A program made the position numbers and the translations under genes. A model generated the notes under the pieces. The model was given only the letters and a program-made list of their open reading frames with translations, was not told the DNA's origin and did not search any database. A stretch of 64,000 bases of DNA from an uncultured Ignavibacteria bacterium (lineage in GTDB: Bacteria; Zixibacteria; MSB-5A5; CAIYYT01), in NCBI GenBank assembly GCA_964468475.1, contig CAYXUL010000001.1:150439-214438 (forward strand). Reading direction: 5' to 3'. Within the stretch, counting starts at the first letter, position 1, and each line of letters begins with the position of its first letter. Of the stretch, positions 14,239-43,651 are shown piece after piece.

Positions 14239-14240
14239 AA

Positions 14241-15986
14241 ATGTCTTTTATAAGGAGGTGCGACGTGAAAGCGCAAAATCGATTGGTGATGGCCCTGTTG
14301 TCCATCGGCGTGCTGTTCTGGGCTGTTGGGGCCGCAGTAGCAATGCCGCCATATCCGGGTCTGCTGGACAGCCTCAAGGCGAACGGCAGTGATATGTCTC
14401 ATGTCCTGCAGAGTTGCCCCTTTGCCAAACTGCAGCAGCAAGGTGGGGTACCTGCCTACGCCGGTGAACCTATTCATTTGAATCCTGCTGCACCGATCTC
14501 AGAGAACATCCTCTGTGTCCTCGTAGAGTTCTCAGATAAGCCGATGCAGGTGAATCCAGGCTTCTTTGACACGCTGTTGTTTGAAAATCAGCCCGGTTGC
14601 GTGCGGCACTACTATAATGAAGTCACCTACGGCTCATTCGATGTTGTGACGGTCAATCTTCCGTCCGATCTGGGCTGGCAGACAGCACCGCAGACTTACG
14701 CTTACTATTGCAACGGCAACAACGGTATGGGTGCCTATCCGCAGAATTCGCAGAAGCTGGTCGAGGATATCGTCGACGCGATTGATTCACTGGTTGATTT
14801 TGCGGTATATGACAATAACAGTGATGGCTACGTTGACGGACTGATGATAGTCCATACGGGACCAGGCGCCGAGCTTACGGGAAGTGCTAACGATATCTGG
14901 TCGCACAAATGGGGTATCACACCGCGGCTCAAGGACGGTGTGTTTATCTCCACCTACGCGATCGAGCCCGAATATTGGCTGAATCCCGGAGATATGACCC
15001 TGGGCGTATTTGCCCATGAGATGGGGCACGCCTTCTTTGATTTACCTGACCTCTATGACGTTGACTACTCCTCCAATGGAATTGGCAAGTGGTCACTCAT
15101 GGCTGGCGGCTCGTGGAACGGTTCGCTCGGGAACTCGCCGGCGCATTTCGACGCCTGGTCGAAAGTTACTGCAGGCATTTGCTCGGCGACGAATGTGACC
15201 TCCAATATCAGCGGACAGTCGATTCCTGATGTGGAGACCAATGATACCGGCGCGATTTTCCGCCTGTGGACCAACGGCTCGGCGGGTGACGAGTACTTCC
15301 TGATCGAGAACCGCGAAAAAACCGGCTACGACTCAGGATTGCCCGGTCAGGGATTGCTGATCTGGCACATCGATGAAGCACAGACTACCGTCGACAACAC
15401 CGACAATGCCAATGAATGGTACCCGGGGCACACTGCTTCCGGTCACTACCGCGTAGCGCTGGAACAGGCTGACGGTCTGTACGAGCTTGAAAAGAAACTT
15501 GATCAGGGAGATGGGGCTGATCCTTATCCGGGTTCAACAAGCAACACCAGTTTCAATGCGCTGTCAAGTCCGTCATCGAATGACTACAATGACCAGGAAA
15601 CGCTGGTGGGAGTGACGAATGTCTCGGCGCCGGGCGCGACGATGACGGCAGACCTCTCAGTTAGCCTGCTGGCAGACGTAGACGATTATGGCTACTCAGC
15701 GACTCTGCCGGAGAGCTACGACTTGAAGCAGAATTATCCGAACCCGTTCAATCCGACGACCAGGATCACGTTTGACCTACCCCATTCGGGACACGTCAAC
15801 CTATCCGTGTTTAACGTCCTGGGAGAACAAGTCGATCAACTCATCGATAATGATCTCCCCGCCGGCAGGCACAGCATCAGCTGGGTCTCCGAATCGCACG
15901 GAGGAGCGTTGCCGTCAGGGGTGTACTTCTACAAACTCAGCACGCGCGACATCACGCTGACAAAAAAGATGTTACTACTGAAGTAG
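14241..15986 (+). CDS. M6 (immune inhibitor A-like) metalloprotease with T9SS-type (FlgD-Ig-like) C-terminal domain
   Basis: VFAHEMGHAFFDLPDLYD is the M6 zinc motif. The C-terminus is NYPNPFNPTTRITFDLP...GVYFYKLSTRDITLTKKMLLLK. A signal peptide is present. Confidence 0.85.
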   Translation: MSFIRRCDVKAQNRLVMALLSIGVLFWAVGAAVAMPPYPGLLDSLKANGSDMSHVLQSCPFAKLQQQGGVPAYAGEPIHLNPAAPISENILCVLVEFSDKPMQVNPGFFDTLLFENQPGCVRHYYNEVTYGSFDVVTVNLPSDLGWQTAPQTYAYYCNGNNGMGAYPQNSQKLVEDIVDAIDSLVDFAVYDNNSDGYVDGLMIVHTGPGAELTGSANDIWSHKWGITPRLKDGVFISTYAIEPEYWLNPGDMTLGVFAHEMGHAFFDLPDLYDVDYSSNGIGKWSLMAGGSWNGSLGNSPAHFDAWSKVTAGICSATNVTSNISGQSIPDVETNDTGAIFRLWTNGSAGDEYFLIENREKTGYDSGLPGQGLLIWHIDEAQTTVDNTDNANEWYPGHTASGHYRVALEQADGLYELEKKLDQGDGADPYPGSTSNTSFNALSSPSSNDYNDQETLVGVTNVSAPGATMTADLSVSLLADVDDYGYSATLPESYDLKQNYPNPFNPTTRITFDLPHSGHVNLSVFNVLGEQVDQLIDNDLPAGRHSISWVSESHGGALPSGVYFYKLSTRDITLTKKMLLLK

Positions 15987-16065
15987 TTTTGTGCCCTGAA
16001 AGTACGCAGCTGCCGACGGCGCCAAGAATCTCTTAGTAAAGATTCCTGCCGAAATCAGCCACTCG

Positions 16066-16095
16066 GGGGAGTCCTGTGGTAAACCAGGACTCCCC
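16066..16095. terminator. Hairpin between convergent genes (possible bidirectional terminator)
   Basis: ggggagtcctg (16066-16076) pairs with caggactcccc (16085-16095), an 11-bp stem. It is followed on the + strand by ttaggtttta and sits between the M6 protease stop and the zinc-ribbon gene stop. Confidence 0.5.
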
Positions 16096-16389
16096 TTAGG
16101 TTTTAGGGGCGGAATCGGAGTCGCCGTCACCGTTCCTGTCGTCGTCCGGGTATTTGAAACCAGGATCGTCCATGTCGACATCCAATGGCGAGTCGTATTC
16201 CGCAGGCCTGTTTGTGTAACCGTTGCTGCCGCGCCGCCCGTTATTCTTGTATTCGGCGTAACATGAACGGCATCGTTTCGGGTCCTCGGTATAACCCTTC
16301 TCGAAAAAGTACTCTTGAGCTCCAGCCGTGAAAGCAAATTCTTCCTTGCAGTCAACGCAAATCAGAATCTTGGTTTTGAAATCTTCCAT
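16096..16389 (-). CDS. Zinc-ribbon domain protein with acidic tail
   Basis: The 97-aa ORF has ILICVDCKEEFAFTAGAQEYFFEKGYTEDPKRCRSC, a CxxC...CxxC ribbon of a widespread bacterial family. Confidence 0.75.
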   Translation of the reverse strand: MEDFKTKILICVDCKEEFAFTAGAQEYFFEKGYTEDPKRCRSCYAEYKNNGRRGSNGYTNRPAEYDSPLDVDMDDPGFKYPDDDRNGDGDSDSAPKT

Positions 16390-16695
16390 AAATCCCCCCG
16401 TCCAGGTTTATGGATGTTTAGGTACTAATAGTGCGAAGTAGCTAGGCTCCATCCTCTCGTAAAATGTGTGTCCCTACACTAAGTTTCCATTTCAGCGAAC
16501 CCAGTGTCGACTGAAATGGTGATCTCCACGGACCAAAAGCTCATGAACGACTAATTTTGTATTAGTTCGATTTGAGTATATTCCTAAGTGCACCAAAATG
16601 TCAACTAAAACTTTTGAAAAACTAGTGGAGAGAGTTTTGAGGATGATGAATTATCTTAAAGCGTCAAGGTCGACAGCAGGGTCAACCTTAAACAG

Positions 16696-19600
16696 CTACT
16701 GCAATTTCATCATTTTGCGGATTTCTAAATAGTGTGGGGTCTCGAGGCGATAGAAATAAACACCGGAAGATACCTGCCGCCCTGCCTGATCGGCGCCGTT
16801 CCAGATAACATACTTAAAGCCCGGCCCTTCATCCTTATCCACCAGCACTTTGACGGTCTGTCCGAGGATGTTATGGACGGTCAAGCGGACATGAGTGGCC
16901 TCCGGCAGAGTGTAGCTAATTCTGGTATCGGGATTGAAGGGATTCGGATGATTCTGCCACAGCGAGTACCCTTCCGGAAGCGTGGCATCACCCGAGAAAC
17001 TTTCTATTACCTGGATCAGCTTGTCCCCGACATCGCTTCCTGCCATACTACTGATAATTTGCCGCAGGCGCTTGAAATTCTCCTGGTGGGCAGAGAAATC
17101 ATAATCTACGGAGAGGGTCGGCGACGAATACTGATGTGTACTTCCCCAGTTTGGACCGATTGCCAGAACATCGAGCTCGTCGATAGTCCCATCACCGTTA
17201 GCATCCGCATAAGTTGCGCGAGGGTCATCCCACAACTCCGCCGGTTTCCCCTCCCAATTAGTGGTGGAGGTTGGGCGTGCCGGCCCCTGCATGCCGAAAA
17301 ACACGCCGATAGGCAACACATCAATCTCGTTCACGACACCATCGTTGTTGCAGTCGCCCGGATATACCGCCGGCCCGGTGATGAAAGTAAAGTCGTAGTC
17401 ATCTGTCGGTGAACCTTCGCCGACTCCGTTACCGTTACCATCAAGCGTATTACCAACCAGGTCGGCAACGGTCCCACTCACGGTGACATCCACGGTGTCA
17501 AACGGCGGGAAGTTGGCATCCGGAACAAACTGCCAATGGGTCTTATTGTCGACCGGACCGCCCTCCTGCAGCGTGCCGGCAACCAAGCCAGCCATTCTCT
17601 CGGAGAATACCTGCACCACGCCCGGCTGATCCGGTGTAGTACTCAGCAGCTCTGAGAAGTCGATATCAATGCGAGTATCGACCATTGCCCCGTCCGAGCC
17701 TGCGACCGGGGTTGTTGACTCCACGAGCGGAGGTTGTCGTTCAACACCGCCCACACCGGTAAGATCCACAGTCTTTTCCGGATCGCGCGGGTCATCGGTG
17801 GTTATCGTTAGGGTGCCGTCGAAGCGTGCCAGAGCATTTGGGTGAAACTCGACCTTCACCCAGAAAAATTGCCCCGGAATAATCGATGGTGAGGTGGTAG
17901 TCACCGGCACGAATTGACCGGTTGAACTCGCGACATTGAGCACCTTGAGGTTCAAACCGCTAAACAAAGCAGCCGTGTTCTGGACCTTAACCGAGTCAAC
18001 CTTAACCGAATCCACTACGACGGTATCGAAGTCTATTGAATTGGGCGTCAGCGCGCAGATCGTCGCTGAACTGGAATAGAAAGGGATCTCCAGAGTATCC
18101 ACCGGAAGGTTCGACGGTGGTTTGCCAATGATCCGCAGCAGGTAGTCACCAACGGCCAAATCCGGGGAAAGCTGCAGGGTCACGGAAGTGGTGTCGAGCG
18201 CTTTGATCGGATTGTTGGCGAATGTTGCCTGAACTGACCCACGGCGAGGATTAGCGGGCTCTATCCTTGCGGTAAGGTTAATGTTACGATTGTATGCCCC
18301 TATCAGCGTGTCCGCCCAGAAGGAGTAAACCTTCATTTGCGGGTCAAGCGAATCTGCACTGATAAAGTTGAGATCAAAACCGCTCACCTGTATCGGCTGG
18401 GAAGCGGAAACTACCACTCCTTCACCACAATCATTGATACCCATGGCAGTTGGCGTGAATATGCCGGGTTCCTGGTAAGTGTGATTAATCGTCAGCGCCG
18501 GGAAAGTGCTGACGCCCGTACTGCCGTCACCAAAGTCCCATTGAATTGAAGTCAACTGTTGCAGGCTTTGCGCCGTGAACTGCACGGGCAGCGGCGCGTC
18601 TCCCAATTGCGGCGAGACGGTGAAGCTAACGGTCGGTACCTCCTGAACGGAGATTGTCATGCTGTCAATATCTGAGCCACAGAAATTGCTTCGCTGCAGT
18701 ACAACATTATAACTGCCGGCAACAGCGAACTCATGCACGGGCTTTGCGGATGTAGAGGTTGTACCATCTCCGAAGTCCCAACGGTCGCTGGATGTGGTCA
18801 AACTATCTTCGTAGAAAAAGCTTACGGTCAACGGTACGCAACCGCTCTCGATATCGGCGAGCGGAGTCGCATCTGGGGGCGCCGTTACGATGATATCGGT
18901 AGAATCGGAAGACGTGTCGGTCGGACACACCAGTGTCATCCTGACCCGATAGGTTCCGGCATTCGCATACGAAGTTGTCGCCATCGTCGGCAGATCCGGA
19001 TTGTAAGTAATTGTATCCACTTCCCCGTTGCCATAATCCCAGACTGTGTAGTCGAAGAAACCATCTGACAGGTTTGTGAAGGCGACTATATCTCCCGTAC
19101 AAGGCGTCAGCGGCGTATAATCAAAATTCGGGACCAGGTTGCACTCGATGTACTCGTACGGTCCGATGTCGATTGCGGAGCCGGAGGTGCGCGGATAACC
19201 CGCATAGTCTATCGAGACAGATTCGAGCGGCAGTGCGGTACCCTTGTTGATCAGCGCTGAACCAGCCTTGAGCCTGAAATCGCCGTTGGCGGCATCTTCA
19301 AATTGCGGGTCGACGTTGAAAATATCATTGGACCCAAGAATACAATCGGGCGTCGTCGTAGGCGTGTTGCCGTAGTAGGCGTTCGTGAAGAAGTTGTAAC
19401 CATAATTGCTGCCACATTGAATAGCGTAATTTTGATTCGCCGCAAAAATATTGTTTTGCAGCAGCGGCTCAACGAACTGCGCCAAACCGATGGCGCCACC
19501 GACACTCTGAGATACATTCTGATAAAACAGGTTGTTCATGATATTCGAACCACTGTTGTCGGTATACAGGGCTGATCCGGAGAATCCGGAAGTATTGCTG

Positions 19601-20301
19601 CGAAATATGTTATTTTGCACGACCGAGTAAGCCTCAGTGGGTGAGCCGTAATTAAATGAGATTGCGCCGCCGGAAGAGTCCGCCAGATTGTTGAGGAACT
19701 CGTTGTTAAATATATAGGCGGCTGAAGACGCACAGAATATTGCGCCACCGTCCCGGCTCGCGTGGTTCCCAGAGAAGGAATTGTCGTGGATGTACGAAAG
19801 TGAATATGACATGTCAATTCCGCCACCGGAGGCACTCGCTCCCGGCGCGTTGTCGAAAATCCTGCAGTCCCTTATCTCCGGAGACGAGTAAACATCGGAG
19901 TTGCCCAGAATGCGAATGTTGGAGGGTGAGCCGCGTGTGATCGAGAATCCCTCCAGAACAGTCGTTGCTGTTATTCCTGCCTGAAAGGCAATGGGAACAC
20001 CAAGCAGTTGACCATTCAGGGTAGTCGAATCCGCACCGAGCTGGCTGGTGATGTAAACATCGCGATCCACCGAAACACCATCGATGTAGGTGCCCGGCTT
20101 GACCATAATTGTATCGATCGGAACTTTGGTGGATGCTATCGAGACCGCATAGCCGATGTGCTGCACCGGGCTAAGCTGGGTGCCGGAGTTGGCATCATTG
20201 CCGGTAGTGGCCACCCAGATGGTTCGCGCGGAAACAGCGCTGCTGAGGAATAGCAACGCTGCAACAATACGACCAAGAAAGATTTTCTGACTACCGCGCA
20301 A
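16696..20301 (-). CDS. Giant secreted protein: DUF1565/parallel beta-helix + 3 PKD + Ig-like (ASH / SbsA-like) + dockerin + T9SS-type CTD
   Basis: The 1201-aa ORF has a signal peptide. Its N-terminus is [22 protein letters not shown]. PbH1-like repeats are present (IHDNSF, IFNNEF, VQNNIF, IMNNLF, LQNNIF). Three PKD signatures are present ([23 protein letters not shown]). The dockerin and CTD are listed as separate features. Confidence 0.85.
   Translation of the reverse strand: [1201 protein letters not shown]
16699..16974 (-). other. T9SS type-A-like / FlgD-Ig-like C-terminal domain of the giant protein
   Basis: [40 protein letters not shown]...[22 protein letters not shown]. The M6 protease has the same architecture at its C-terminus. 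Confidence 0.7.
17143..17361 (-). other. Canonical two-repeat dockerin module inside the giant protein (aa 981-1053)
   Basis: [22 protein letters not shown] ... [22 protein letters not shown]: two EF-hand-like Ca-binding loops (DxNxDGxxxxxD), each followed by a helix. Confidence 0.7.
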
Positions 20302-21112
20302 CGGCTTCTACCTCCCCGTTCTCGATGTAAAGCTGCCCGGCAGCCGGCAAATGATTTCCCTGCCAGTCAACGAGTTGAATTGTGTCGGGGTTGATCGTAA
20401 TGTCGGTAGTACCCGAAGCTGTACCGGGTAACAAATCAAATGTTGCAACTATCCCGCCGCCGTCCACGCCTTGCTGTGTTTGGTTCCCCTGAATCGTCAA
20501 GCCGACGGCAACATAATTTCCCTCGTTCCGGGAAAAGAATATCGTCTGATTTTGCCCGAAAATTGAACCTTCAGTCACGTTTCCAACCTTCACAATTGTC
20601 GAATCAAATTCGATGCGAAAACTCGCCCCAAACAGCGCATTTACATTGTGGATTTCCACTCTCAGCTGATTCGTTTCCGAAGTGCTGGTCAATTGCTGGT
20701 AAAGTGGCGTCACCCGAATCATCGGCACCTGTGGCTCTAACTTGATATTAACTGTTGCTGAGCCGACCGGGGCGATCTGCGTTACTTCGCTGCCCTGATA
20801 CAACACAGTGCCCTCGATATCCATCGCCATCATCGTAAAGGTCAAATCCTGCCCGGTGGGAACCTCGACCTCAAATGTGGCAATGCCATCCACGAAAACT
20901 GTGTCTTTAACAATATCTTCAATACCGTCGCCGGTGATAGTCAGCCTTACATTCGTTACACTGCTGCCGAGATCTGCCTGCTTCAAAACTGCCTGCACCG
21001 TAAGTTGATTGTTCTGCCCCGTCGGCGAGTCGCTCAGAGAGCAGGAAGAGAGCAGCAATGCTGCTGCGAGCAAAGTTGCAGCAGTGACCAGGCGCGAGAT
21101 TCTTAGAACCAT
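20291..21112 (-). CDS. Lipoprotein with Ig-like N-domain and cohesin-like C-domain
   Basis: The lipobox is LLLSSC (Cys24). Residues 131-268 are LRVEIHNVNALFGASFRIEFDSTIVKVGNVTEGSIFGQN...GGGIVATFDLLPGTASGTTDITI, matching the cohesin pattern (v.v..v..l.g.qf.l.yD...l.v..v..G). The ORF overlaps both neighbours, by 10 nt and 11 nt. Confidence 0.6.
   Translation of the reverse strand: MVLRISRLVTAATLLAAALLLSSCSLSDSPTGQNNQLTVQAVLKQADLGSSVTNVRLTITGDGIEDIVKDTVFVDGIATFEVEVPTGQDLTFTMMAMDIEGTVLYQGSEVTQIAPVGSATVNIKLEPQVPMIRVTPLYQQLTSTSETNQLRVEIHNVNALFGASFRIEFDSTIVKVGNVTEGSIFGQNQTIFFSRNEGNYVAVGLTIQGNQTQQGVDGGGIVATFDLLPGTASGTTDITINPDTIQLVDWQGNHLPAAGQLYIENGEVEAVAR
20309..20722 (-). other. Cohesin-like domain
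   Basis: See the parent CDS. This is a fold-level call from the sequence pattern only. Confidence 0.5.
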
Positions 21113-22260
21113 GCGCGTCCTCCCACTGCGACCTCCGCACCGGACACCTTGATCTCTCCATCCGGATCGTTCTTATCGGCCGTACCGGTGCTGATAACAA
21201 TTCTGCCATAGATGCTGTAGTTCTTGGAAGGAGCGCGGTATTCGGCCCCACCACCGAAGCTCACAATTGATGACTTACCGAAATAGTCGGGTGCGTCGAC
21301 GGCAAGATCATTGGCACTGAGATAACGATAACCCAGCATGAGATTGCCGATTACATCCTCAGTCAGAGAATACCCTACCGTGCCGCTTACAACACTCTTG
21401 TTGTTATTGGAATTGTTTGACTCGCTGTTAAGTGAACTTCCAAACTGCAGCGAGTTCTTATTGCGGAATATCTGGGCGATGGTCAGAGTGGCTTTTACTT
21501 TCTCCACCTTATAGATTCCACGCGCGACCGCGGCTACGACGGCGCCGTTCTTGAACACCTCGGTACCACCAATCTTATCGGCGAAGAAATTGCGGTAGGA
21601 CAAGTCAACGTCAAGCGAGGCCTGCTTGGAGAGCGCCGTGCCGGAGACCTGGAATGTCAGCTCATCGCCCGGATTGTAGTCGGCACCATCCTTGAAATAA
21701 GAGTACGATCCCCTCAGGTTGTAGGTAACCGATGCGCCGTACAGAAACCAGTCTGCATACTGGTTGGCGCCACCAACCTGCGCAACCACTCCGAACCCTT
21801 CTCCGACCCGTTTCACGGGGATGTTGAGGTAATCGTCGGCGATCAGCTGCGTCACTTGGACTTCAAGGGAGTCATATCCGGTCTTACCGGTGGGCAGCAC
21901 CAGGCCGAACGACGCGAAGGCATGGCCATTGGCAAATGCTCGAAACACGCGCGCCTGGGTGTCCGTGAGAGTGGAGATTGTCTGATTCAGCGCGACTTTG
22001 TCGTCCACATTGGTGTGCGAGAAGGCACTACTGAGGTGAAGCTGCCAGTCATTGGCAATCGGCACGTAGACCCGGAAGGGAACAGCCGACTGCGACAGGC
22101 TGGTCTCCACACCGCCCTGCTTCAGTTTCCAACCCTGGTAGATAATTTCTGCAGATACGCTGTTGCGCTGGCTGTAGACGATCTGACCCTGTGCGGCTAC
22201 TGCCAGCAGGAGCGTCAGTGCAATTGAAAAAATGAAAGCTGTCCGATAGCTAATCTTCAT
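21103..22260 (-). CDS. Outer-membrane beta-barrel protein
   Basis: The 385-aa ORF has a signal peptide (LLLAVAAQGQ), an amphipathic strand pattern with frequent Y/G/N turns, and a terminal GGRAWF. Confidence 0.7.
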   Translation of the reverse strand: MKISYRTAFIFSIALTLLLAVAAQGQIVYSQRNSVSAEIIYQGWKLKQGGVETSLSQSAVPFRVYVPIANDWQLHLSSAFSHTNVDDKVALNQTISTLTDTQARVFRAFANGHAFASFGLVLPTGKTGYDSLEVQVTQLIADDYLNIPVKRVGEGFGVVAQVGGANQYADWFLYGASVTYNLRGSYSYFKDGADYNPGDELTFQVSGTALSKQASLDVDLSYRNFFADKIGGTEVFKNGAVVAAVARGIYKVEKVKATLTIAQIFRNKNSLQFGSSLNSESNNSNNNKSVVSGTVGYSLTEDVIGNLMLGYRYLSANDLAVDAPDYFGKSSIVSFGGGAEYRAPSKNYSIYGRIVISTGTADKNDPDGEIKVSGAEVAVGGRAWF

Positions 22261-22303
22261 AATCCTCTACTTCGCTGCAACTCCGTCGCGATTTTCCACT
22301 GCC

Positions 22304-23617
22304 TTAGTCTGCGCTTCCCGTAACCGTCACGGTTGCGCTGCCACGTTGCGGGGTAGGCTGGGGATTTTCATCTGTCGAGGGTGCACCCTCGGTGGAACCC
22401 TGCAGCCTTTGCATGATATCTCCCTGGCTGATCACCGCCTGCGACTCCGGTTTAACATCAAGCTGCACCATTTCAGCGAGCGCCGTTACCGGACGAGGCG
22501 CTCCTTCAAATTTCGAAAGGCCGCTGTAATCCTGCGCCGCCTGAGTGGCGAGCCCGAAATTGGGATCGTCCCTCACCGCCTCTTTGAATTCCGCCTCTGC
22601 GAGCTGATACATGCCCCGGTCGGCATAGTCGAGCCCGCGTGAATAGGCGATCAGCGCGAGAACCGATTCGGTCTGAGACTTGTCGATCGCAGCTTTGATC
22701 TCCGGGGTTATCTTATATCCAAGTTTTTCGATTATATCGAATGTCAGCTTCTTCTGCAGTCCAAAGATGTCCGAGACTTTACCTTCTTGTTTCTGAGGAT
22801 ATTGTGCCAGCGCGGGGCCAACAGCCACGATTCCGGCGTCGATCTGAAGTTCATTCTTGCCCGGCTCGTCAATCTGTCCTGTGATCACTTTCGAGGCCCC
22901 CACGATCTTGCCGACGCGGGGTGAGTTGTATTGGTCCGCAAGCTGGGACTGGCTCAGCTTTAGCTCCTGCTGCAGCTGGGAAATCTCCAGCCTTTCGACC
23001 AGAGTCAAACCGGGAACATGAGAGAGATCATTATAGATTAGCTCAGCAATTCCGCGTCCAAGAGGCTTGTATTGATCGGAAAGTTTGCTGGCATCGAAGC
23101 GCACAACCGCCACCGTGTTCTTCGGAATAGTCGAAGCATCGATCTTGCTTTCATTCGCTATCGCATTAGCCACAATCTTTTGCAGATGCTGATCCTCCAG
23201 CCAGTGGAGCCGATAGCGGATTTCAGGCGCGAGGCTCTTGTCAGGATTGAGCGACAGGTAGCTGCGGTAAAGCGCCAGAGCAGCCTCAGTCTGCCCGCGC
23301 TCCTCATGAATCATTCCTCGATAAAGGATCGATTGCGGGTTGTTCGGTTCGAAGCGATCCGCCTGATCAAAGGCTTCCAGGGCTTCATCATACCTTTGTA
23401 AATGGAAATAAGCGACTCCCAGGTTTCGCCAGAGGCGTGCACTTTGCGGGCTGCGTGCCAGTTCCCCCTGGTAATGGGAGATAGCCTGTTCATAATCGCC
23501 CTTCGCCAGCAGGCTGTCGCCGCCACTTCCCGTAGCGGCGCAACCGGCCAGAACGGCTGTTGCCATAGCGATTAAGGACAGGCTGACTATGAGTTCTCGG
23601 AAATCATGCCAGCGCAT
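22304..23617 (-). CDS. Lipoprotein with TPR repeats and a CsgG/LpoB-like domain
   Basis: The lipobox is VLAGCAA. TPR segments are present (YEQAISHYQGELARSP, WRNLGVAYFHLQRYDEALEAFDQADRFEPNN, and others). The CsgG-like core is TVAVVRFDAS...LGRGIAELIYNDLSHVPGLTLVERLEISQLQQEL...GKIVGASKVITGQI. Confidence 0.7.
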   Translation of the reverse strand: MRWHDFRELIVSLSLIAMATAVLAGCAATGSGGDSLLAKGDYEQAISHYQGELARSPQSARLWRNLGVAYFHLQRYDEALEAFDQADRFEPNNPQSILYRGMIHEERGQTEAALALYRSYLSLNPDKSLAPEIRYRLHWLEDQHLQKIVANAIANESKIDASTIPKNTVAVVRFDASKLSDQYKPLGRGIAELIYNDLSHVPGLTLVERLEISQLQQELKLSQSQLADQYNSPRVGKIVGASKVITGQIDEPGKNELQIDAGIVAVGPALAQYPQKQEGKVSDIFGLQKKLTFDIIEKLGYKITPEIKAAIDKSQTESVLALIAYSRGLDYADRGMYQLAEAEFKEAVRDDPNFGLATQAAQDYSGLSKFEGAPRPVTALAEMVQLDVKPESQAVISQGDIMQRLQGSTEGAPSTDENPQPTPQRGSATVTVTGSAD

Positions 23618-23699
23618 ATAGCAATTGACTCTCTAATGACTCCTGTAAGTTTTTCAAATCCTCTGGAGCGATTGCTTTACGGCATTCGCTCCGCTTCGC

Positions 23700-24707
23700 T
23701 TACTCGCCTGCAGCTTTCATTTCTAATTCTACACGTTGTTGACGATCTGACGCAAGCACAAAATCGGGTGAAATATCGAGAGCCTGTGCGTAAAATTGCT
23801 CCGCCTTGTTGTAGTTGCCCTCTTCTTCCTGGGCAAATCCCTGAGAATAAGCCAGCAACGCAGCCAGATTTACGTTCGGAACCTTGGCTTTGGCTTCGTC
23901 GATCGCCTTCGCTTCGACCTTGAAATATGCCATTATCGAATCAGCCAATTCCATTGAAAGGTCGCCGATCTTGCTGTCTTTTCCTTCAACACTGAAAGTT
24001 TTCTTCGGGAGGGTGGTCTCGGTATCAATGACCCGGGCCATAATCCTGACCTTGTCCTTTTGCATCTTCATGAACGTCCCGAAAATAAAATTCGATGCGC
24101 CAATGACTTTGCCGGTCTGAATTTTGTAGTTTTCGTCGGTCATTCCCTTCTGCGAATTCTCTATCTCCTGCTTGAGATAATTGAAATGCGAGCGCGAAGG
24201 GACATACACCAAACCTGACGAGATCAGGTTGTAGCGCACCAGCTCAGAAATTCCCAGCCCTGCCGTCTTGTACTTATCGGCATCGACTATGGAGCCATTG
24301 TCAAACTCGACCACTGCCACGGTCAGCATCTTCTTGAATTGACCCGGTTTGAAGCCGGTGTCATTGACAAATTTCGCCCATGCTTTCGACACCAAGGCCG
24401 GTTCGTCGCCGGTATCGAAATTGGTATTAGGGTCCAGCTTGACCAGCGCCGCAAAATAGCTTTGTGCCTGATCCGGCTGTTTGTTCTGAGCGCAGGCGCG
24501 TGACAGCCAACGCAGAACGCCCGCGCTGTCTGCTGCAGACAATCCCTGCTTGTCAAGCATATCACTTGCCTTCATGACCACGTCAGCAAACTGCCCACGG
24601 CGGTAAAGCGTGCCCAACTCATCTATCTGACTTCCCGAGTCTGCCCAGACGAGCGTGAAGGGGATAACCAGCAAAAGCGCTATTAGTATTCCGTTAATGC
24701 GTTTCAT
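23700..24707 (-). CDS. Secreted TPR + CsgG/LpoB-like domain protein (paralog of 22304..23617)
   Basis: A signal peptide is present. The core is TVAVVEFDNGS...GLGISELVRYNLISSGLVYVPSRSHFNYLKQEI...GKVIGASNFIFGTF. The C-terminal TPR is EEGNYNKAEQFYAQALDISPDF. Confidence 0.7.
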   Translation of the reverse strand: MKRINGILIALLLVIPFTLVWADSGSQIDELGTLYRRGQFADVVMKASDMLDKQGLSAADSAGVLRWLSRACAQNKQPDQAQSYFAALVKLDPNTNFDTGDEPALVSKAWAKFVNDTGFKPGQFKKMLTVAVVEFDNGSIVDADKYKTAGLGISELVRYNLISSGLVYVPSRSHFNYLKQEIENSQKGMTDENYKIQTGKVIGASNFIFGTFMKMQKDKVRIMARVIDTETTLPKKTFSVEGKDSKIGDLSMELADSIMAYFKVEAKAIDEAKAKVPNVNLAALLAYSQGFAQEEEGNYNKAEQFYAQALDISPDFVLASDRQQRVELEMKAAGE

Positions 24708-24759
24708 GGCGTTTTTCCTTTCACAAAACTAACGGTTTAATATTTCCACTCAACATAAA

Positions 24760-26772
24760 TTACTTCTTTCGCAGCTTGAATTCGACAGTCTTTGCGCTGC
24801 TGATGTCGACGTACTGCGGTCCGCCCATAGTCTCATAATCGGGATGTTCGATCCAGATTTTATGCATTCCGTTCATTACATCCTGCCGAAACGGGGTGTC
24901 TCCGTCCTTGATTTTGACATTGTCGATGTACACCTGGGCCGGAACAAAATCATCTGGATTCGCCGGGACCAGCGATGTCACAGTCAGGCGGCTCTGTTTG
25001 TTGTTCGGCTTAAACGTCGCATTGACTGTATTGCCGCTCACTGAGACACGTTCGGTTAGACGTCCGACATCGGTAATAATACCGACTTCGTGGCTGCCTT
25101 CTTTAAGATCGTTAAAATTCACTGGCGTACCCTCATATTGTACGCTCTTACCGTCGAAATACACCTTAACTGGTTCAAATATCTTGTAATCCTCGACACT
25201 AACCGTAATCTCGCCGGTAGCCGGCGCTTCGGCGCTCGATAGCGTAAACGATTGCGATACAACGTCTTTATCTACTTTGACGCTCTGATTTATCGGCTTG
25301 GCGCCTTTGCCGGAAACATCGATCGTGTACTCACCCGGCTTCAACCCGGAGAAATTCAATTGTCCGCCGGTGAAGTCCTTGCTTTGTCCGTTAATCGACA
25401 CTGTAACCGGCGCGAAATCCTTATAATTCGCAATCGATACTGCAATCCCACCCGGAACCGCCTGCTGCTCCTTGACAACTTGACCCCACAGTTGCACTAC
25501 CGCCGGGGGAAAACGGTCATCAAACGTAAGATCAGGATTGGAAGAGTACAGCTTCTTTAGCTCCGTCTGCGCTTCTTCAAAGTTACCTTCCAACAGCTGC
25601 GCCGCTGCCTGAAACTGCGCGATCTCGAGCCGATCCTGATCGCTGGCTGATGCCGAGGTCTGTAAGTTTTGTAGCATAGGCAGCGCCTTGGAGTAATCTT
25701 CACTATTCACGTAACCAATCGCGACCTTGAGCGAGTCTGCAAAGGTCGTCGCCTCCACCGAGCCTTTTCCTCCGCCGGGACGTACTACCAGCCACAACAC
25801 CACCGCAATCACGACCAGCGCAACGGCGGCCAGACCAATCTTCTTCCACATGCCGCCACCGCCGATTGAAGGCGGCTCAACAACCAGCTCCGTCTTTTCC
25901 AGCTCCGGCATGACCTGCTTGACCGTCTTCTCGCCCGACAGATCGATACTAGCCAATGCATCGTTCATATCGGCAGCGGACTGAAATCGTCTGGCCGGAT
26001 CTTTCTGCAACGCTTTGAGAATTAGCGACTCCGCCCCGGGATCGACATCGCTGCGGAATGTACGCGGCGACGGCGGTGTCTTTTCGAGATGACCGGTCAT
26101 TATTTCATATTCTGAATCCGCCGCGAACGGTGTATGCCCTGTCAAAACCTGATAGAGAGTGATCCCCACAGAGTAGAGATCCGAACGATTATCGATCTTT
26201 TCGCGCTTGCCGCGAATCTGCTCAGGTGACATGTACAACAGCGAACCGGCGCCGGTGCCGGTGCGTGTCAGCTTGGCGCCATCGGTTACCATCGCAATGC
26301 CGAAATCGGTGATCTTGACGGTACCATTACTGGTGATCATGATATTCGAAGGTTTGATGTCGCGATGGATTATTCCGTGATCATGGGCGTAACCTATACC
26401 GCTCAGTAGCTGCCGGAAAATCGGAGCAGCCTCAGCGATGCTAAGATATTTCCTTTCGCGCAATATCGCATCGAGATTGGTGCCATCGATGTATTCCATC
26501 ACGATGAAGGTGACATCGTCGATTTTATCGTAGTCGGAAACTCGAACGATGTTCTGGTGCTCAAGCTGGCCCAGGGCGAGGGCTTCCCGCTCAAAGTAGG
26601 CGGAGAGCATTTCGTCCTTGGCTACTTGCGGATGAAGCACCTTTAGGGCGAATTGCTTTCGTAGTTTGACGTGTCGTGCGAGAAAAACCGAACCGAATCC
26701 CCCTTCACCGATCTTCTTAATGATCTCGTATTTACCAATCTTTTCTAATTCCATAGTCTCAGCCGGGTACAA
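24760..26772 (-). CDS. Transmembrane Ser/Thr protein kinase with periplasmic TPR-like and PEGA-like domains
   Basis: Hanks kinase motifs are present: IGEGGFGSV, ALKVL, HRDIKPSNIM, DFGIA, SPEQ. One TM helix follows (GLAAVALVVIAVVLWLVV). Then come 3 repeats of about 65 aa, such as GEYTIDVSGKGAKP and GMHKIWIEHPDYET. Confidence 0.9.
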   Translation of the reverse strand: MYPAETMELEKIGKYEIIKKIGEGGFGSVFLARHVKLRKQFALKVLHPQVAKDEMLSAYFEREALALGQLEHQNIVRVSDYDKIDDVTFIVMEYIDGTNLDAILRERKYLSIAEAAPIFRQLLSGIGYAHDHGIIHRDIKPSNIMITSNGTVKITDFGIAMVTDGAKLTRTGTGAGSLLYMSPEQIRGKREKIDNRSDLYSVGITLYQVLTGHTPFAADSEYEIMTGHLEKTPPSPRTFRSDVDPGAESLILKALQKDPARRFQSAADMNDALASIDLSGEKTVKQVMPELEKTELVVEPPSIGGGGMWKKIGLAAVALVVIAVVLWLVVRPGGGKGSVEATTFADSLKVAIGYVNSEDYSKALPMLQNLQTSASASDQDRLEIAQFQAAAQLLEGNFEEAQTELKKLYSSNPDLTFDDRFPPAVVQLWGQVVKEQQAVPGGIAVSIANYKDFAPVTVSINGQSKDFTGGQLNFSGLKPGEYTIDVSGKGAKPINQSVKVDKDVVSQSFTLSSAEAPATGEITVSVEDYKIFEPVKVYFDGKSVQYEGTPVNFNDLKEGSHEVGIITDVGRLTERVSVSGNTVNATFKPNNKQSRLTVTSLVPANPDDFVPAQVYIDNVKIKDGDTPFRQDVMNGMHKIWIEHPDYETMGGPQYVDISSAKTVEFKLRKK

Positions 26773-27092
26773 GTTGTGATTTCAATGCAATCAAAAGGAA
26801 CCGTAGTGGAGTAAGAGAGTCAACAAAAAACGCTGGATATGAAGCTCCTGTGAATACGATACGTTCTTAAGCGCGGCACAGCCGGGCATCAAGTTGCTAT
26901 CATGCCGACAAGTCTAATCATTACAAACTAAGTACAGCTAACGCATGTCGGGGATTGCAGGAATAATAATCAATTAGAACTGTCCATTTCCTCGTGTTTT
27001 GTGAAATTCGTTCGTAACATTCTTACGAGAGTCAAGTCAACCACCGGACTGGCAGCACGTCTAGCTGCCTCTTCACGGAAAGGAGTATTTCA

Positions 27093-27485
27093 GTGAGTAA
27101 TAACCTTGAAGTGCTGAAGACAGGTTACGAGAACTTCGCAAAGGGTAACATCCCTGCAGTGTTAGAAACGTTTGATCCCAAAATCGAATGGAAAGAGCCA
27201 AAAGGCTCGTTCTACGGCGGGACATATACAGGACCTAATGATGTCGCCAAGAACGTTTTCGAAAAGGTCAATGAAGATTGGGCCGATTTCACGCTGCAGC
27301 CAAACAAATACATCGAAAGCGGTGATGAAATCGTAGTCCTTGGCAAATGTAAAGGAACTCATAAAGCCACGGGGAAGCCCTTCGAGACGAGCTTTGCACA
27401 CGTCTGGACCGTGCATGATGGGATTGCTCAGAGTTTTGAGGATTTCATGGACACGGCCATGGCGCACGAAGCAGCGAAATCCTGA
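27093..27485 (+). CDS. SnoaL-like / NTF2-fold protein
   Basis: The 130-aa ORF starts LEVLKTGYENFAKGNIPAVLETFDPKIEW, typical of ketosteroid-isomerase-like proteins. Confidence 0.75.
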   Translation: MSNNLEVLKTGYENFAKGNIPAVLETFDPKIEWKEPKGSFYGGTYTGPNDVAKNVFEKVNEDWADFTLQPNKYIESGDEIVVLGKCKGTHKATGKPFETSFAHVWTVHDGIAQSFEDFMDTAMAHEAAKS

Positions 27486-27598
27486 AGAACGCTGCAGCAG
27501 GTTGAATCAATTTGACGGGGGATTATAGATTAACTGCCCACCTCTGCTGTATCGCTTCTTGGGGAGATGTAGTTGAAATCTGACAACTCCTGAAGATG

Positions 27599-29686
27599 TT
27601 ATCCCTGGATTGCATTGCACGGCGGGTAGGGTCCGCCGCCGAAGATATAGTTTATCAGAAAAACCGCGTCGGCGATGCTGATGCTTCCATCGCAATTGGC
27701 ATCGCCCGCCTCCAGTGCTGGAGTCGGCGCGGGACCACCCCCAAAGATGTAGTTTACGAGGTAGACACCGTCGCTGATGCTAAGACTGCCGCTCTGGTCG
27801 CTGTCTCCGTGTTGCAGGAAGACCTCTACCGCCCCGGAGTCAGAATCGCTCACCCCGACAACTGAGCTCGCCTGCGCAGTCAGAGTTATCGAGTTGACTG
27901 AGCCGATTGCCGCACTTGGCGGCGCCGTGACCACTACATTAAACTGACCGGTCTGTCCTGAATTCAGTGACAGACTACCGCTCGTCGGGCTCACTGGCCA
28001 GCCAAGTTGATCCGCCACGGTAATGTCGAAGTCGTCAGGCTGCAGACCGACATTCTCCACACTAAACTTGACCGTCACTGTGGAATTGGAATAGACGCTA
28101 TCATCCGCTATAGAGCTGACATCGATCGCGTACGCGGGACTGGAAACGTAATCGGCGCCGTAGCTGTAATTACGATTGTCGAGCGTCTGGCTGACGTTGG
28201 CGATCACCATGGCGAGCTCATCTTTGTCACCAACCGGGCTCAGGGTAAACTCGCCCGCCCCACTCCCGTCCAGAGGCATCTGATATTCTGTATAGTCGTT
28301 TGTCGACGTGTTACGGGCGAGCATGGTAACGATCCAGCTGACGCCGTCTTCACCGTCAAAGTCGACCGTGAACGAAAATGCATCTGAGGGGATATTGAAC
28401 ACTATGTAATTCGCACCCATCCCGTCCGGATACTTCCCCGTGACCGGCCCCAGGCCTGAAACCGGATAAGTCGAATGAGTGCGGGTGATGGCGATCAGCG
28501 GATAATTCTCAGCTTCCTCATAGTGATTGCCGTCGTTGCGCGAGGCTGTGACATAATTCCACGCCCAGAACTCCGCCACTTCCTGCGGGACAGTGGCTCC
28601 CTTGGCAGCGAGCACCGTGCTGAATGCCGGGTAGGGGCTGGTTGTAATCAATTGATTCCAAATATCGGGAAATGTTTGCGCACCGAAATTCTCCTGCAGA
28701 TACTTGCCCCAGATAAATGCTGAATACATATGCCCATTAGTGATGGAGTGCAGGGACCAATCGGGATCATTGAAAAGGGTTGGAAGATAATTGTAGTTGT
28801 CGTTGACTACGTCGTAAACATAATCCTCCATCCAGGTCGACGAGGTTTCCATGAACCACACCTGCTCGCCGACGTCATAAGCGAACTGAATCGCATGATA
28901 GAATTCGTGCGCAACGGTGACTTTCGCCGCTCCCTTCTGATTTCCATCAGGGTCGGTGTTGGGCGGGAACCCAATGAAATTGCGATGCACAGATATGTAA
29001 CTGTAGGCATCGTTCCACGGCTCCGGACCAGCGCCCTCAGGCTGAGTGTAGCCATAGTACGGCATTTCCTCGGTATAGATATCGTAGAGGCTATCGCCTC
29101 CGAGAGTACCGTCGGCGGGCGGCGTCAGCTGGCCAAGTCCGATAATCTCGGTTCTATAGGAACTGTCTGCGTAATCGGCAATCCACTGCACGAAGTCGGG
29201 AATTCCATCAGCCGGATCGACATCGGTACTCGGCACCGCGTTGGAACCGGATAGGTCATAGTGTATGCGAAAATGTCCTTCCGGGCTGACAATACTGTAC
29301 GTCTGGCTCGGCCGTGTCAGCATAGATGACAATGCGTCACGTGTTGAACCATCAAGCTTATTCCACTGCTGGCGCACCTCCAACAGCACGGGCGTTGCAC
29401 AACGGCCCTGATCTATCACATTCGATTGATACTCGACCGGCAGCGCACCGGGCCGCTTGATCGATTCCACTGAGTAGAGGAGTCGCTGCTGTTCAGTCAG
29501 CTTGCCCTGGTCGTAGGCTTCCCGGATTAGAGTCAGTGAGGATTTCCCGTTCGCAGCGCGTGCCGGCTGCAATCCGAGCGTTACAAGCAACGCTGCAAGC
29601 GCAACGATAATCGAGTGGTAGTGGTATCGCATAGCTGAGCTTTCTAACCTGTCAGAGTCGATTCTTGATTGATGTCGAGCAGTCAC
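27599..29686 (-). CDS. Secreted HExxH putative zinc metalloprotease with C-terminal twin dockerin-like module
   Basis: VTVAHEFYHAIQFAYDVGEQVWFMETSSTWMEDYVY contains the HExxH motif. The probable true start is Met19 (29632), giving the signal peptide MRYHYHSIIVALAALLVTLGLQPARA. The C-terminal module spans 27602-27808. Confidence 0.75.
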   Translation of the reverse strand: MTARHQSRIDSDRLESSAMRYHYHSIIVALAALLVTLGLQPARAANGKSSLTLIREAYDQGKLTEQQRLLYSVESIKRPGALPVEYQSNVIDQGRCATPVLLEVRQQWNKLDGSTRDALSSMLTRPSQTYSIVSPEGHFRIHYDLSGSNAVPSTDVDPADGIPDFVQWIADYADSSYRTEIIGLGQLTPPADGTLGGDSLYDIYTEEMPYYGYTQPEGAGPEPWNDAYSYISVHRNFIGFPPNTDPDGNQKGAAKVTVAHEFYHAIQFAYDVGEQVWFMETSSTWMEDYVYDVVNDNYNYLPTLFNDPDWSLHSITNGHMYSAFIWGKYLQENFGAQTFPDIWNQLITTSPYPAFSTVLAAKGATVPQEVAEFWAWNYVTASRNDGNHYEEAENYPLIAITRTHSTYPVSGLGPVTGKYPDGMGANYIVFNIPSDAFSFTVDFDGEDGVSWIVTMLARNTSTNDYTEYQMPLDGSGAGEFTLSPVGDKDELAMVIANVSQTLDNRNYSYGADYVSSPAYAIDVSSIADDSVYSNSTVTVKFSVENVGLQPDDFDITVADQLGWPVSPTSGSLSLNSGQTGQFNVVVTAPPSAAIGSVNSITLTAQASSVVGVSDSDSGAVEVFLQHGDSDQSGSLSISDGVYLVNYIFGGGPAPTPALEAGDANCDGSISIADAVFLINYIFGGGPYPPCNAIQG

Positions 29687-29692
29687 TGCTTC

Positions 29693-31447: not shown

Positions 31448-31724
31448 GCTTAATTCGCTGACCTTCTGTGCCTACTAACTCTCTATTAACGAATAAGTTC
31501 CCCTGCCCGCTTCTCCCAATTGTACCTATCGGCTTCAGATTGTCGTGATCGGCCCGCTTGTCGACAGTATTTTACTCCTCTCATCTTTATCGGTAAGTTG
31601 CAGCAAAGTAATGAGATAGGCTCTGCGGATCGCTCGAACTTCATTGCCGTTCCGTGAGACAACCGCGTGACGCAATTGGCTGTTTCGCAACGGCTTGGGC
31701 ACTGCGTTTCGCAATGACATTATT

Positions 31725-31752
31725 TTGACACGCTCCATTGAGTTGCTATATT
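31725..31752 (+). promoter_or_regulatory. Strong promoter-like element (TTGACA-N16-TATATT; also fits the Bacteroidetes-type TTTG...TAnnTTTG)
   Basis: TTGACA lies at 31725-31730 and TATATT at 31747-31752. TATATTTG at 31747-31754 also matches TAnnTTTG. The ATG at 31759 sits exactly 7 nt after the -10 hexamer. Confidence 0.55.
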
Positions 31753-31758
31753 TGCCCA

Positions 31759-42963: not shown

Positions 42964-43003
42964 GCGTGAACTATATTTACCTATAATCAAGGAGATCCCA
43001 CAC

Positions 43004-43651
43004 ATGAAAGTTACTCGCCTGCCTCTCATAGCGGCGTTTTCCTTTTCCGTTCTCTTGATCCTGTCTGCTTCGGTAACTGCTGCGAAGAAGGACAAACTCG
43101 CGGCTAAGGAAAAGAAGGCGACGACTACTCAAGCAGAAGCTCACAAGAGTTCGTCGTCCGTCAAAGCTGCACCTCGTACTTCGGCAACTAATACCGGCGC
43201 TACCAATTTGCCCGGAACCCCGACCGGGCCCATAGATGGCAGCAATCTGCTGCCAAGCTCACCTCAGACCGGCGAGCAAATCAACTGGGATGTCATCTCC
43301 TCGGGGGGCGGCCCGATGACTTCGACTAATTTCATGCTGGACGGGACAATTGGTCAGACGGTAGCAGGTCCTTCCAGTTCAACGAACTTCGTGCTCAACA
43401 GCGGCTACTGGCAGAATTTTGGTACCGGCCCGAGTTACGTCTGCGGAGACGCGGACGGTGACGGCCAGGTTATCATTTCAGACGCGGTATATTTAATAAA
43501 CTACATCTTCGCCGGCGGCCCGGCCCCCGATCCGCTCGTCAGCGGCGATGTCGATTGTGACGGCGTGCCAATCATTTCTGACGCCGTTTATATCGTCAAC
43601 TACATCTTTGCCGGCGGCCCGGCGCCGTGCGCAGCGTGCCCGCAGACGTAA
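43004..43651 (+). CDS. Small secreted protein with twin dockerin-like C-terminal module
   Basis: AAGGAG lies 9 nt upstream of ATG 43004. The signal peptide is MKVTRLPLIAAFSFSVLLILSASVTA. A low-complexity linker follows, then STNFMLDGTIGQTVAGPSSSTNFVLNSGYWQNF. The twin module spans 43445-43648. Confidence 0.75.
   Translation: MKVTRLPLIAAFSFSVLLILSASVTAAKKDKLAAKEKKATTTQAEAHKSSSSVKAAPRTSATNTGATNLPGTPTGPIDGSNLLPSSPQTGEQINWDVISSGGGPMTSTNFMLDGTIGQTVAGPSSSTNFVLNSGYWQNFGTGPSYVCGDADGDGQVIISDAVYLINYIFAGGPAPDPLVSGDVDCDGVPIISDAVYIVNYIFAGGPAPCAACPQT

Follow-up and report, generated by a model that had tools for sequence, protein, structure and literature searches.

The locus examined here raises the question of what a lipoprotein with a cohesin domain is doing in a diderm bacterium, encoded between an outer-membrane barrel and a giant secreted protein that carries a dockerin. 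It lies in a stretch of 64,000 nt (hereafter the window; contig CAYXUL010000001.1 of assembly GCA_964468475.1, positions 150,439 to 214,438 of the forward strand) from an uncultured bacterium deposited under Ignavibacteria and placed by GTDB in the Zixibacteria, and it comprises six genes: a Hanks-type Ser/Thr kinase, two proteins combining tetratricopeptide repeats (TPRs) with an alpha/beta module (TPRa and TPRb), a beta-barrel, the cohesin lipoprotein, and the giant protein, with a dockerin and a C-terminal sorting domain (CTD) of the type IX secretion system (T9SS) (Table 1). The answer developed below is that the first five genes form a widely conserved cassette and that the lipoprotein's cohesin may bind the giant's dockerin, so that a T9SS cargo would be tethered at the cell surface and coupled to a Ser/Thr kinase; the chain as a whole is proposed tentatively, at a little less than an even chance.

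The six open reading frames (ORFs) are all on the minus strand within 16696-26772, at exactly the coordinates first given, and their first three junctions are gaps of 52, 82 and 43 nt, the last two overlaps of 10 nt (21103-21112) and 11 nt (20291-20301). The initial annotation had described the direction and the gaps as the ORF list gives them, but had claimed overlaps at the last three junctions, where the list shows two. A GGAGG-like motif lies 5-9 nt upstream of both overlapping start codons, inside the preceding gene, and the 11-nt overlap between the lipoprotein and giant genes recurs in independent gene calls of relatives; overlaps and motifs fit translational coupling, short of proof. 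For the kinase, ATG 26754 (residue 7) is a more probable start than TTG 26772, because the alignments of all orthologues begin at residue 7. Domain scans agreed with the parts list drawn up at the outset (kinase, TPR pair, barrel, lipoprotein, and giant), and the envelope-spanning character ascribed to the set would follow from the predicted locations of its proteins.

The named homologues of these genes belong to the Zixibacteria/Zixiibacteriota, and the six-gene order was retained in 13 distinct Zixibacteria genomes at protein identities of 36-70%, in keeping with the synteny expected in related metagenome-assembled genomes. A metagenome scan seeded on TPRb alone (an 11-sequence alignment) recruited 80 loci, nearly all at 31-39% identity, and two distant carriers had been sampled beforehand; neighbours were counted as the loci with a given neighbour over the loci with room for it. 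By this count, the barrel gene was directly downstream of TPRb in 68/68 loci, a TPRa-like gene was directly upstream in 53/59, and a PEGA Ser/Thr kinase was upstream of TPRa in 33/39, with the combined kinase and PEGA architecture retained in eight of the ten distant loci in which PEGA was checked. A homologue of the window's lipoprotein followed the barrel in 36 of 51 loci, and where the barrel was followed by no such homologue, a different lipoprotein came next in 11 of 16. The conserved unit is a five-gene cassette of kinase, TPRa, TPRb, barrel, and a lipoprotein with an exchangeable head, and because the flanks differ between loci it is regarded as a functional unit rather than an inherited gene order; that the order recurs in 13 genomes of Zixibacteria, and again in dozens of distant loci from metagenomes, is far beyond chance. 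The cohesin-dockerin pair is one lineage-specific version of this more general cassette, with the giant as a partner gene that is often on the opposite strand, and T9SS CTDs imply that the distant carriers belong to the Fibrobacteres-Chlorobi-Bacteroidetes (FCB) group. No description of the cassette was found in the literature, including that on Zixibacteria, T9SS, and PEGA kinases, in agreement with the initial annotation, which knew of no characterised system with this gene combination. In one distant locus (L025, 13701-21308), the cassette adjoins type VI secretion genes (TssF, TssG, VasE-like), and the 171-177-aa and 737-aa proteins found beside it there recur in 8-9 loci.

The kinase is predicted to have a cytoplasmic kinase domain (residues 15-290), a single transmembrane segment by hydropathy (307-335), and an extracytoplasmic part in which a helical region is followed by PEGA/CarboxypepD_reg-like beta-sandwiches (~430-670), the combination that defines a Hanks-type kinase with a PEGA ectodomain and the one expected of the inner-membrane PEGA kinase named at the outset. 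TPRa has a signal peptide and no lipobox, from which a secreted periplasmic protein is predicted, with a TPR-like N-terminus, a CsgG_N/LpoB/TolB_N/FlgO-like alpha/beta core at ~125-260 (window 23928-24335), and a C-terminal TPR. TPRb carries a lipobox (LAGC, with lipidated Cys26, a Cys nearly invariant among 30 family members), three TPRs, the alpha/beta core at ~165-300 (window 22718-23125), a C-terminal TPR, and a disordered Pro-rich tail. At the C-terminus of TPRb (22304-22345), a short motif resembling a strand, RGSATVTVTGSAD (consensus G-T/R-V-x-V-x-G-R-x-D), is conserved behind this long disordered tail; it could serve for docking by beta-augmentation on the barrel or on a PEGA sandwich.

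TPRa and TPRb are paralogous (34% identity over 201 aa, E 7e-21). Their earlier description as two CsgG/LpoB-like TPR paralogues held for the repeats, the paralogy, and the CsgG score of TPRb, but the CsgG score of TPRa stayed below the cut-off. Of the 210 positions of the CsgG model (PF03783), TPRb matches 8-99 and TPRa 7-97, which is the N-terminal half only, without the channel-forming half that a full-length curli-type channel includes; on these profiles the matches correspond to the alpha/beta half shared with TolB_N, LpoB, and FlgO, and lend no support to a CsgG channel. The TPR plus alpha/beta module was found in 16,235 representative proteins at E<=1e-3, and its nearest multi-domain relatives co-match CsgG, FlgO, TolB_N, and LpoB. 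Sequence searches of the PDB returned no match for the CsgG_N-like core alone and TPR proteins only for the full TPRa/b profile. Among the ten longest top matches, the module was fused to extra copies of itself, LysM, FG-GAP, a beta-helix, or a FadL barrel, and in none to a kinase. One protein, P0107 (827 aa, from a JGI metagenome), joins a FadL/Toluene_X outer-membrane barrel (137 bits) to TPRs and a CsgG_N-like module, a Rosetta-stone pointer that hints at a module acting on the periplasmic face of an outer-membrane barrel.

The 385-aa barrel protein, first called from its sequence, was modelled by AlphaFold2 (25 homologues) as an all-beta barrel of ~16 strands (16-17 long strands; pLDDT 74, pTM 0.71), consistent with that call. 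It matched no Pfam or NCBIfam family and none of the PorV, PorP, or PorQ models, and its Foldseek matches were generic porin, OprD, CymA, FadL, and BcsC barrels at a TM-score of ~0.45. Synthase-dependent exopolysaccharide export is typified by TPRs together with a 16-18-strand barrel, and TPRa, TPRb, and the barrel might instead form a polymer or fibre export channel like AlgK/AlgE, PelB/PelC, BcsC, PgaA, or curli CsgG, with the lipoprotein as an accessory. Related alpha/beta modules form rings in PelC and CsgG, and the BcsC and OprD-type barrels among the Foldseek matches fit such a channel. However, those barrel matches are generic, the CsgG match covers the non-channel half of the model, and unbiased clustering of all neighbours across the 82 loci returned no further recurrent family and no glycosyltransferase, synthase, or amyloid subunit gene; with no linked synthases among the neighbours, the export reading was rejected as very improbable.

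The lipoprotein contains the part of the cassette that varies. Behind its lipidated Cys come a beta-sandwich at the N-terminus (residues 34-125, window 20738-21013) and, after a Pro-rich linker that hardly varies (P127-x-V-P-M...P136), the cohesin, which makes up the C-terminal half (residues 128-273, window 20294-20731) and whose Pfam match to PF00963 spans residues 149-241. The AlphaFold2 model (pLDDT 86) places this half in the nine-strand jelly-roll beta-sandwich fold of cohesins, and the top 50 Foldseek matches in the PDB are all cohesins, the best being 2xdh, a non-cellulosomal Archaeoglobus cohesin (E 1.5e-9, TM-score 0.79); the solved ScaC/ScaB cohesins gave a weak profile match (E 0.066). 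Profile score and predicted fold both bear out the cohesin call made initially for the C-terminal half. For the N-terminal domain, a PEGA-like assignment was rejected (hhalign probability 3.9%).

The 29 distant lipoprotein homologues all keep Cys24, P127, and P136 and have a conserved N-terminal sandwich, and by Pfam the heads are cohesins in six, leucine-rich repeats (LRR) in eight, and laminin-G (ConA-like) domains in three. Presumably the N-terminal domain and the Pro-rich linker serve the cassette machinery, and the C-terminal head serves the ligand. From the lipidated Cys onward, the lipoproteins have a common motif, C-S-[ED]-[KR], that is absent from TPRb, a difference that hints at different sorting of the two. 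In several loci (L034, L037, L039, L045, L063, L083, and others), the lipoprotein is 450-670 aa long and matches the cohesin profile poorly or not at all.

The giant begins with a signal peptide, a right-handed beta-helix (residues 30-385), and three PKD domains (395-640), continues with an ASH/choice-of-anchor-D Ig domain (750-852) and Big_5 (856-956), and ends in a dockerin (978-1058, window 17128-17370), a linker of ~65 aa, and a type-A T9SS CTD (1119-1201, window 16699-16947). These scans agree with its first description as a beta-helix/PKD protein with a T9SS CTD: TIGR04183 scores 25.7 bits against a cut-off of 23, as for type A cargo, whereas Pfam Por_Secre_tail (PF18962) scores 15 against 27, a cut-off that the orthologous partner proteins pass. 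A PDB sequence search with the giant returned PKD domains only. Of the label "canonical dockerin", the noun stands, since Dockerin_1 (PF00404) scores 30.9 bits against a cut-off of 22.9 and both calcium loops are intact at positions D1/N3/D5/D12 (DCNNDGVVNEID at residue 983 and DANGDGTIDELD at 1033) and conserved in 22 loci. The adjective does not, since the module is internal and its loops are 50 residues apart (48-56 in relatives), compared with 33-34 in the window's four other dockerins; the profile and the EF-hand-like loops of type I dockerins are present, and the compact C-terminal duplication of a segment of ~22 residues, with ~33-35 residues between loop starts, is not. Pairwise identity is 71% in the dockerin and 70% in the CTD, compared with 45-50% in the rest of the protein. 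The giant-type dockerin has the consensus V.PGD.N.DG.V.E.D.LP.G...YADA.G.G..D..NW, and the tail of Big_5, dockerin, linker, and CTD also ends 12 distant partner proteins, in which the linker is ~70 aa long.

Neighbourhood, co-occurrence, conservation, and co-variation point the same way, and together they are suggestive of binding between the cohesin and the giant's dockerin. The 64-kb window holds one cohesin, one giant-type dockerin, and four scattered dockerins of the common type. In 11 of the 17 loci with room, a protein with a giant-type dockerin and CTD was encoded no more than 6 kb from the lipoprotein, on the opposite strand in nine of the 11; the linkage has therefore survived rearrangement. 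The head was a cohesin in 12/12 loci with such a neighbour and in 2-3/6 loci without one, counts that take in the close relatives L047, L050, and L054. In partial Mantel tests on 22 loci, which remove background divergence but whose values, like those of mirror-tree comparisons, are still inflated by shared ancestry, cohesin distances tracked the giant-type dockerin best (r 0.62), followed by the barrel (0.46), the lipoprotein N-domain (0.30), the CTD (0.27), the kinase (0.22), and TPRb (0.13).

On the preferred reading, the giant would be exported by Sec and then by the T9SS, with removal of the CTD, and the dockerin, now near the new C-terminus, would plug into the lipoprotein's cohesin in a calcium-dependent manner. 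The barrel would hold or present the lipoprotein at the outer membrane, and may export or thread it like Slam, LptDE, or the pairing of RcsF with outer-membrane proteins, such that the giant adhesin-like protein would stay tethered to the cell non-covalently. TPRa and TPRb would form a periplasmic scaffold beneath the barrel, in contact with the kinase's PEGA ectodomain, and how far the surface complex is occupied, loaded, or assembled would be converted into cytoplasmic Ser/Thr phosphorylation. A wider version, in which the cassette would be a widespread trans-envelope receptor-kinase system of the FCB group (a barrel-presented swap-head lipoprotein, a TPR/CsgG_N-like ring or scaffold, and a PEGA kinase), with the cohesin variant tethering a T9SS giant through a new dockerin subfamily and signalling its engagement, is possible but doubtful.

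Several observations weigh against surface tethering coupled to the kinase. They include the inflation and the close relatives named above, as well as the co-variation of the barrel with the cohesin. This barrel fits no family, its model is of moderate confidence, and gene order is what links the kinase to the periplasmic proteins. No T9SS core gene was seen within the 64-kb window apart from a weak PorV/PorQ-like barrel (27 bits against a cut-off of 90), and a promoter and terminator scan of 15900-31800 was uninformative, with counts equal to those of shuffled sequence. Two metalloprotease genes with canonical dockerins are conserved as cassette neighbours in Zixibacteria to the same degree as the giant. 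Finally, L040 and L071 are cohesin-headed and have room downstream but lack a neighbour with the giant-type dockerin, and L025 carries a cassette with a cohesin-like lipoprotein and no giant nearby.

These cohesin-headed cassettes without a giant, together with the exchangeability of the heads, favour a reading without any physical cohesin-dockerin pairing, in which the cohesin-like domain is one of several interchangeable heads for external ligands, the dockerin-like module is a calcium-stabilised spacer before the CTD, and the neighbours are co-regulated surface proteins. Non-cellulosomal cohesin-like and dockerin-like modules are reportedly common, with partners that are unproven. Such a reading sits poorly with the restriction of the giant-type dockerin neighbour to cohesin-headed loci despite strand flips, with conservation of the dockerin far above the background of its protein, and with its having the strongest co-variation with the cohesin. 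It also leaves aside the conserved polar face of cohesin strand 3, where R166 is present in 18 of the 22 cohesin-headed loci and both R166 and E168 are invariant in the alignment of the close Zixibacteria family. The absence of pairing is considered distinctly unlikely.

The putative metalloproteases MP1 and MP2 offer other possible ligands. Both end in a canonical twin-repeat dockerin of 33-34-residue spacing (...ISDAVYLINYIFGGGPxPPC, with a conserved terminal Cys), and in every sufficiently long Zixibacteria locus they are co-directional with the kinase and immediately upstream of it, with all of the dockerins kept; five of the more distant loci (L030, L031, L056, L087, L091) likewise encode metalloprotease-type dockerins ahead of the kinase, on its upstream side. 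These dockerins are possible alternative ligands of the cohesin, and if they and like-tagged proteins were its real ones, the locus would encode a cell-bound protease complex, a minimal non-cellulolytic "cellulosome", and the giant's dockerin-like module would bind another ligand or calcium only. However, the common dockerin type is scattered in the window, with two of its four copies far from the cassette, and it is missing from most distant cassette loci that have a giant-type dockerin neighbour. Across nine Zixibacteria genomes, cohesin distances are followed by those of the giant's dockerin (partial r 0.51) and not by those of the metalloprotease dockerins (0.01 and 0.07). MP1 and MP2 have no recognisable outer-membrane export signal, which makes a meeting place with a surface cohesin doubtful, and in the window an opposite-strand SnoaL/NTF2-like gene lies between MP1 and the kinase. 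In relatives just 160-225 nt separate the metalloprotease genes from the kinase, which marks the insertion as specific to the window genome; it splits the six genes from the metalloprotease pair, and they therefore need a promoter of their own here. A protease complex of this kind is rather unlikely.

A third alternative accepts the pairing and moves it to the periplasm: the lipoprotein would face inward, and its cohesin would capture the giant's dockerin between Sec and the T9SS translocon as a cargo-specific chaperone or checkpoint, with the kinase reporting the periplasmic cargo load. Diderm lipoproteins face the periplasm by default, TPRa, TPRb, and the kinase ectodomain are predicted to be periplasmic, T9SS cargo folds in the periplasm, and the giant's dockerin adjoins the CTD that the T9SS recognises. 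Yet this arrangement leaves no role for the barrel, which is invariably coupled to TPRb and whose gene overlaps that of the lipoprotein; the alternative LRR and laminin-G heads are typical extracellular binding modules; and the C-S-[ED]-[KR] motif, without a counterpart in TPRb, suggests a different sorting of the lipoprotein. Capture in the periplasm is judged unlikely, and surface tethering is retained as the preferred reading.

The block conserved in Zixibacteria exceeds the six genes, taking in the two metalloproteases upstream and, downstream, a small treble-clef zinc-finger gene (zf_Tbcl) and a divergent trio (Table 1). In Zixibacteria the zf_Tbcl gene invariably comes after the giant gene, in the same orientation; its membership of the unit is uncertain, given a 306-nt gap and a promoter-like site of its own. 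This site, TTGACA-18-TATACT at 16604-16575, matches at 11/12 positions in a scan whose counts overall equal those of shuffles. A perfect 12-bp GC-rich hairpin (16065-16096) lies between the convergent M6 and zf_Tbcl genes. Within the trio, the 418-aa barrel gives the weak PorV/PorQ signal mentioned above and a DUF5723 signal, and the M6 peptidase is the second CTD protein of the window, with a clear T9SS CTD (37.5 bits); the two could be a second cargo and its own PorV-like shuttle. Rfam and tRNA scans of the whole window returned no match.

Elsewhere in the window, the genes of two Peptidase_S74 "chaperone of endosialidase" proteins precede that of a 236-aa protein bearing a canonical dockerin. 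The Peptidase_S74 domain is typical of phage tail fibres and spikes, and the three proteins may build a surface structure that resembles a tail fibre and employs the common dockerin tag. A further protein combines three BACON_2 domains with a common-type dockerin at its C-terminus, which scores 17.5 bits with Pfam and 88 bits with a profile of the metalloprotease dockerins.

Table 1. Positions in the window of the six-gene block, its conserved neighbours, and other features discussed in the text.
Feature	Position	Strand	Evidence or remark
Hanks-type Ser/Thr kinase, 670 aa	24760-26772	minus	Pkinase 196 bits; PEGA 40.1 bits
TPRa, 335 aa	23700-24707	minus	CsgG 17.8 bits (below cut-off 20.8); LpoB 17.2; TPR_2 38.7
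TPRb, lipoprotein, 437 aa	22304-23617	minus	TPR_2 69.6 bits; CsgG 22.9 bits (cut-off 20.8)
Outer-membrane beta-barrel, 385 aa, signal peptide	21103-22260	minus	AlphaFold2 model
Cohesin lipoprotein, 273 aa, lipidated Cys24	20291-21112	minus	Cohesin 33.6 bits (cut-off 24.1)
Giant secreted protein, 1201 aa	16696-20301	minus	Pfam/NCBIfam domain matches
MP1, MXAN_6640-family HExxH putative metalloprotease (DUF6055)	27599-29686	minus	NF045524 222 bits; Dockerin_1 27.2 bits
MP2, MXAN_6640-family HExxH putative metalloprotease (DUF6055)	29693-31447	minus	NF045524 220 bits; Dockerin_1 27.9 bits
SnoaL/NTF2-like gene	27093-27485	plus	SnoaL_2 52 bits
Small treble-clef zinc-finger protein	16096-16389	minus	zf_Tbcl 57 bits
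Conserved divergent trio	11021-15986	plus	653-aa protein without family; 418-aa barrel; M6 metalloprotease
418-aa barrel of the trio	12982-14238	plus	
M6 peptidase of the trio	14241-15986	plus	
Peptidase_S74 protein	38138-39883	plus	
Peptidase_S74 protein	41404-42963	plus	
236-aa dockerin protein	42941-43651	plus	
BACON_2/dockerin protein	62415-63983	minus	

In its working, the proposed arrangement would come closest to the cohesins with which cellulosome producers anchor proteins at the cell surface, such as Ruminococcus flavefaciens ScaE with the X-dockerins of CttA/ScaB, or Clostridium thermocellum OlpA/OlpC/SdbA, with which it has in common a single cohesin on a cell-anchored protein and a neighbouring large, non-enzymatic, adhesin-like protein with a dockerin in its C-terminal region. 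The window's cohesin superimposes on solved cohesins, including those of OlpA/OlpC complexes, at TM-scores of 0.75-0.79. Unlike these anchors, it belongs to a diderm host and is associated with a lipidated Cys and a dedicated outer-membrane barrel instead of a sortase signal or S-layer homology (SLH) domains; its putative cargo would exit through the T9SS, and its dockerin carries an insertion of 15-20 residues and is followed by a linker and CTD. Tandem-cohesin scaffoldins and glycoside hydrolases, as found in cellulosome producers, are lacking, and a Ser/Thr kinase and two TPR/CsgG_N-like proteins belong to the unit. The locus does not qualify as a cellulosome, with one cohesin in the window and, as the initial annotation had noted, no glycoside hydrolase nearby (no such domain in the window's domain scans); the dockerin proteins of the window are putative metalloproteases, BACON/Ig proteins, and the beta-helix protein.

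The nearest published in-silico precedent has the opposite arrangement. In Candidatus Stygibacter (Cloacimonadota), a cellulosome-like complex was predicted in silico in which a 3,755-aa scaffoldin with multiple cohesins bears the CTD, and the enzymes bear the dockerins (PMC8542988). That system is likewise from the FCB group, combines dockerin-tagged peptidases and hydrolases with a cohesin protein, and uses a T9SS CTD for surface attachment; here, one cargo combines CTD and dockerin, and a small lipoprotein carries the only cohesin, and no cassette of kinase, TPR proteins, and barrel was reported for Candidatus Stygibacter (PMC8542988). The retention of T9SS cargo in Bacteroidota (PorU/PorV/PorQ/PorZ, and SprF/PorP-like barrels beside SprB) is comparable in that a giant adhesin-like cargo is encoded beside a dedicated outer-membrane barrel and accessory envelope proteins and in that the exported cargo is kept on the cell, as proposed here. 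Retention in Bacteroidota is by ligation to anionic lipopolysaccharide (A-LPS) or by a type-B CTD on PorP/SprF, whereas the giant has a type-A CTD (TIGR04183) and its proposed tether is cohesin-dockerin.

Among systems that handle surface lipoproteins, Slam (type XI), LptD/LptE, and RcsF-OmpA/C/F resemble the cassette in placing a periplasmic TPR and an outer-membrane barrel directly upstream of a lipoprotein with a beta-rich C-terminal domain for display, and RcsF also in the proposed link between an outer-membrane lipoprotein and an inner-membrane signalling protein, which is a phosphorelay there and a Hanks kinase here. Slam joins a DUF560 14-strand barrel to N-terminal TPRs in one polypeptide, whereas the cassette has TPRs and barrel on separate proteins, ~16 strands, no DUF560, and additional CsgG_N-like modules; the TPR_Slam match of TPRb is borderline (35.6 bits against a cut-off of 35.2). 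With the CsgG/LpoB/TolB_N/FlgO/PelC modules, the TPRa/TPRb core has its matches to CsgG and LpoB in common; since the match is confined to the N-terminal half of the CsgG model, it gives no sign of the transmembrane hairpins of a CsgG pore, and TPRs flanking the core on both sides are specific to the TPRa/TPRb family. Because it fits the definition of none of the families considered, the cassette is regarded as new as a system.

If the proposed pairing is true, a cohesin-dockerin plug would be a third route of T9SS cargo retention, besides A-LPS ligation and PorP/SprF binding, in a phylum without cultured members, and would be the first example of cohesin-dockerin chemistry that serves not a cellulosome but an envelope machine of a diderm, equipped with a barrel and a kinase of its own. 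Recombinant modules suffice for testing, without culture of the organism, and a new orthogonal cohesin-dockerin pair would be of practical use for surface display in Gram-negative hosts. The cassette itself is present in dozens of unrelated metagenomic contexts, and may represent a common coupling of surface binding to Ser/Thr signalling in uncultured sediment bacteria.

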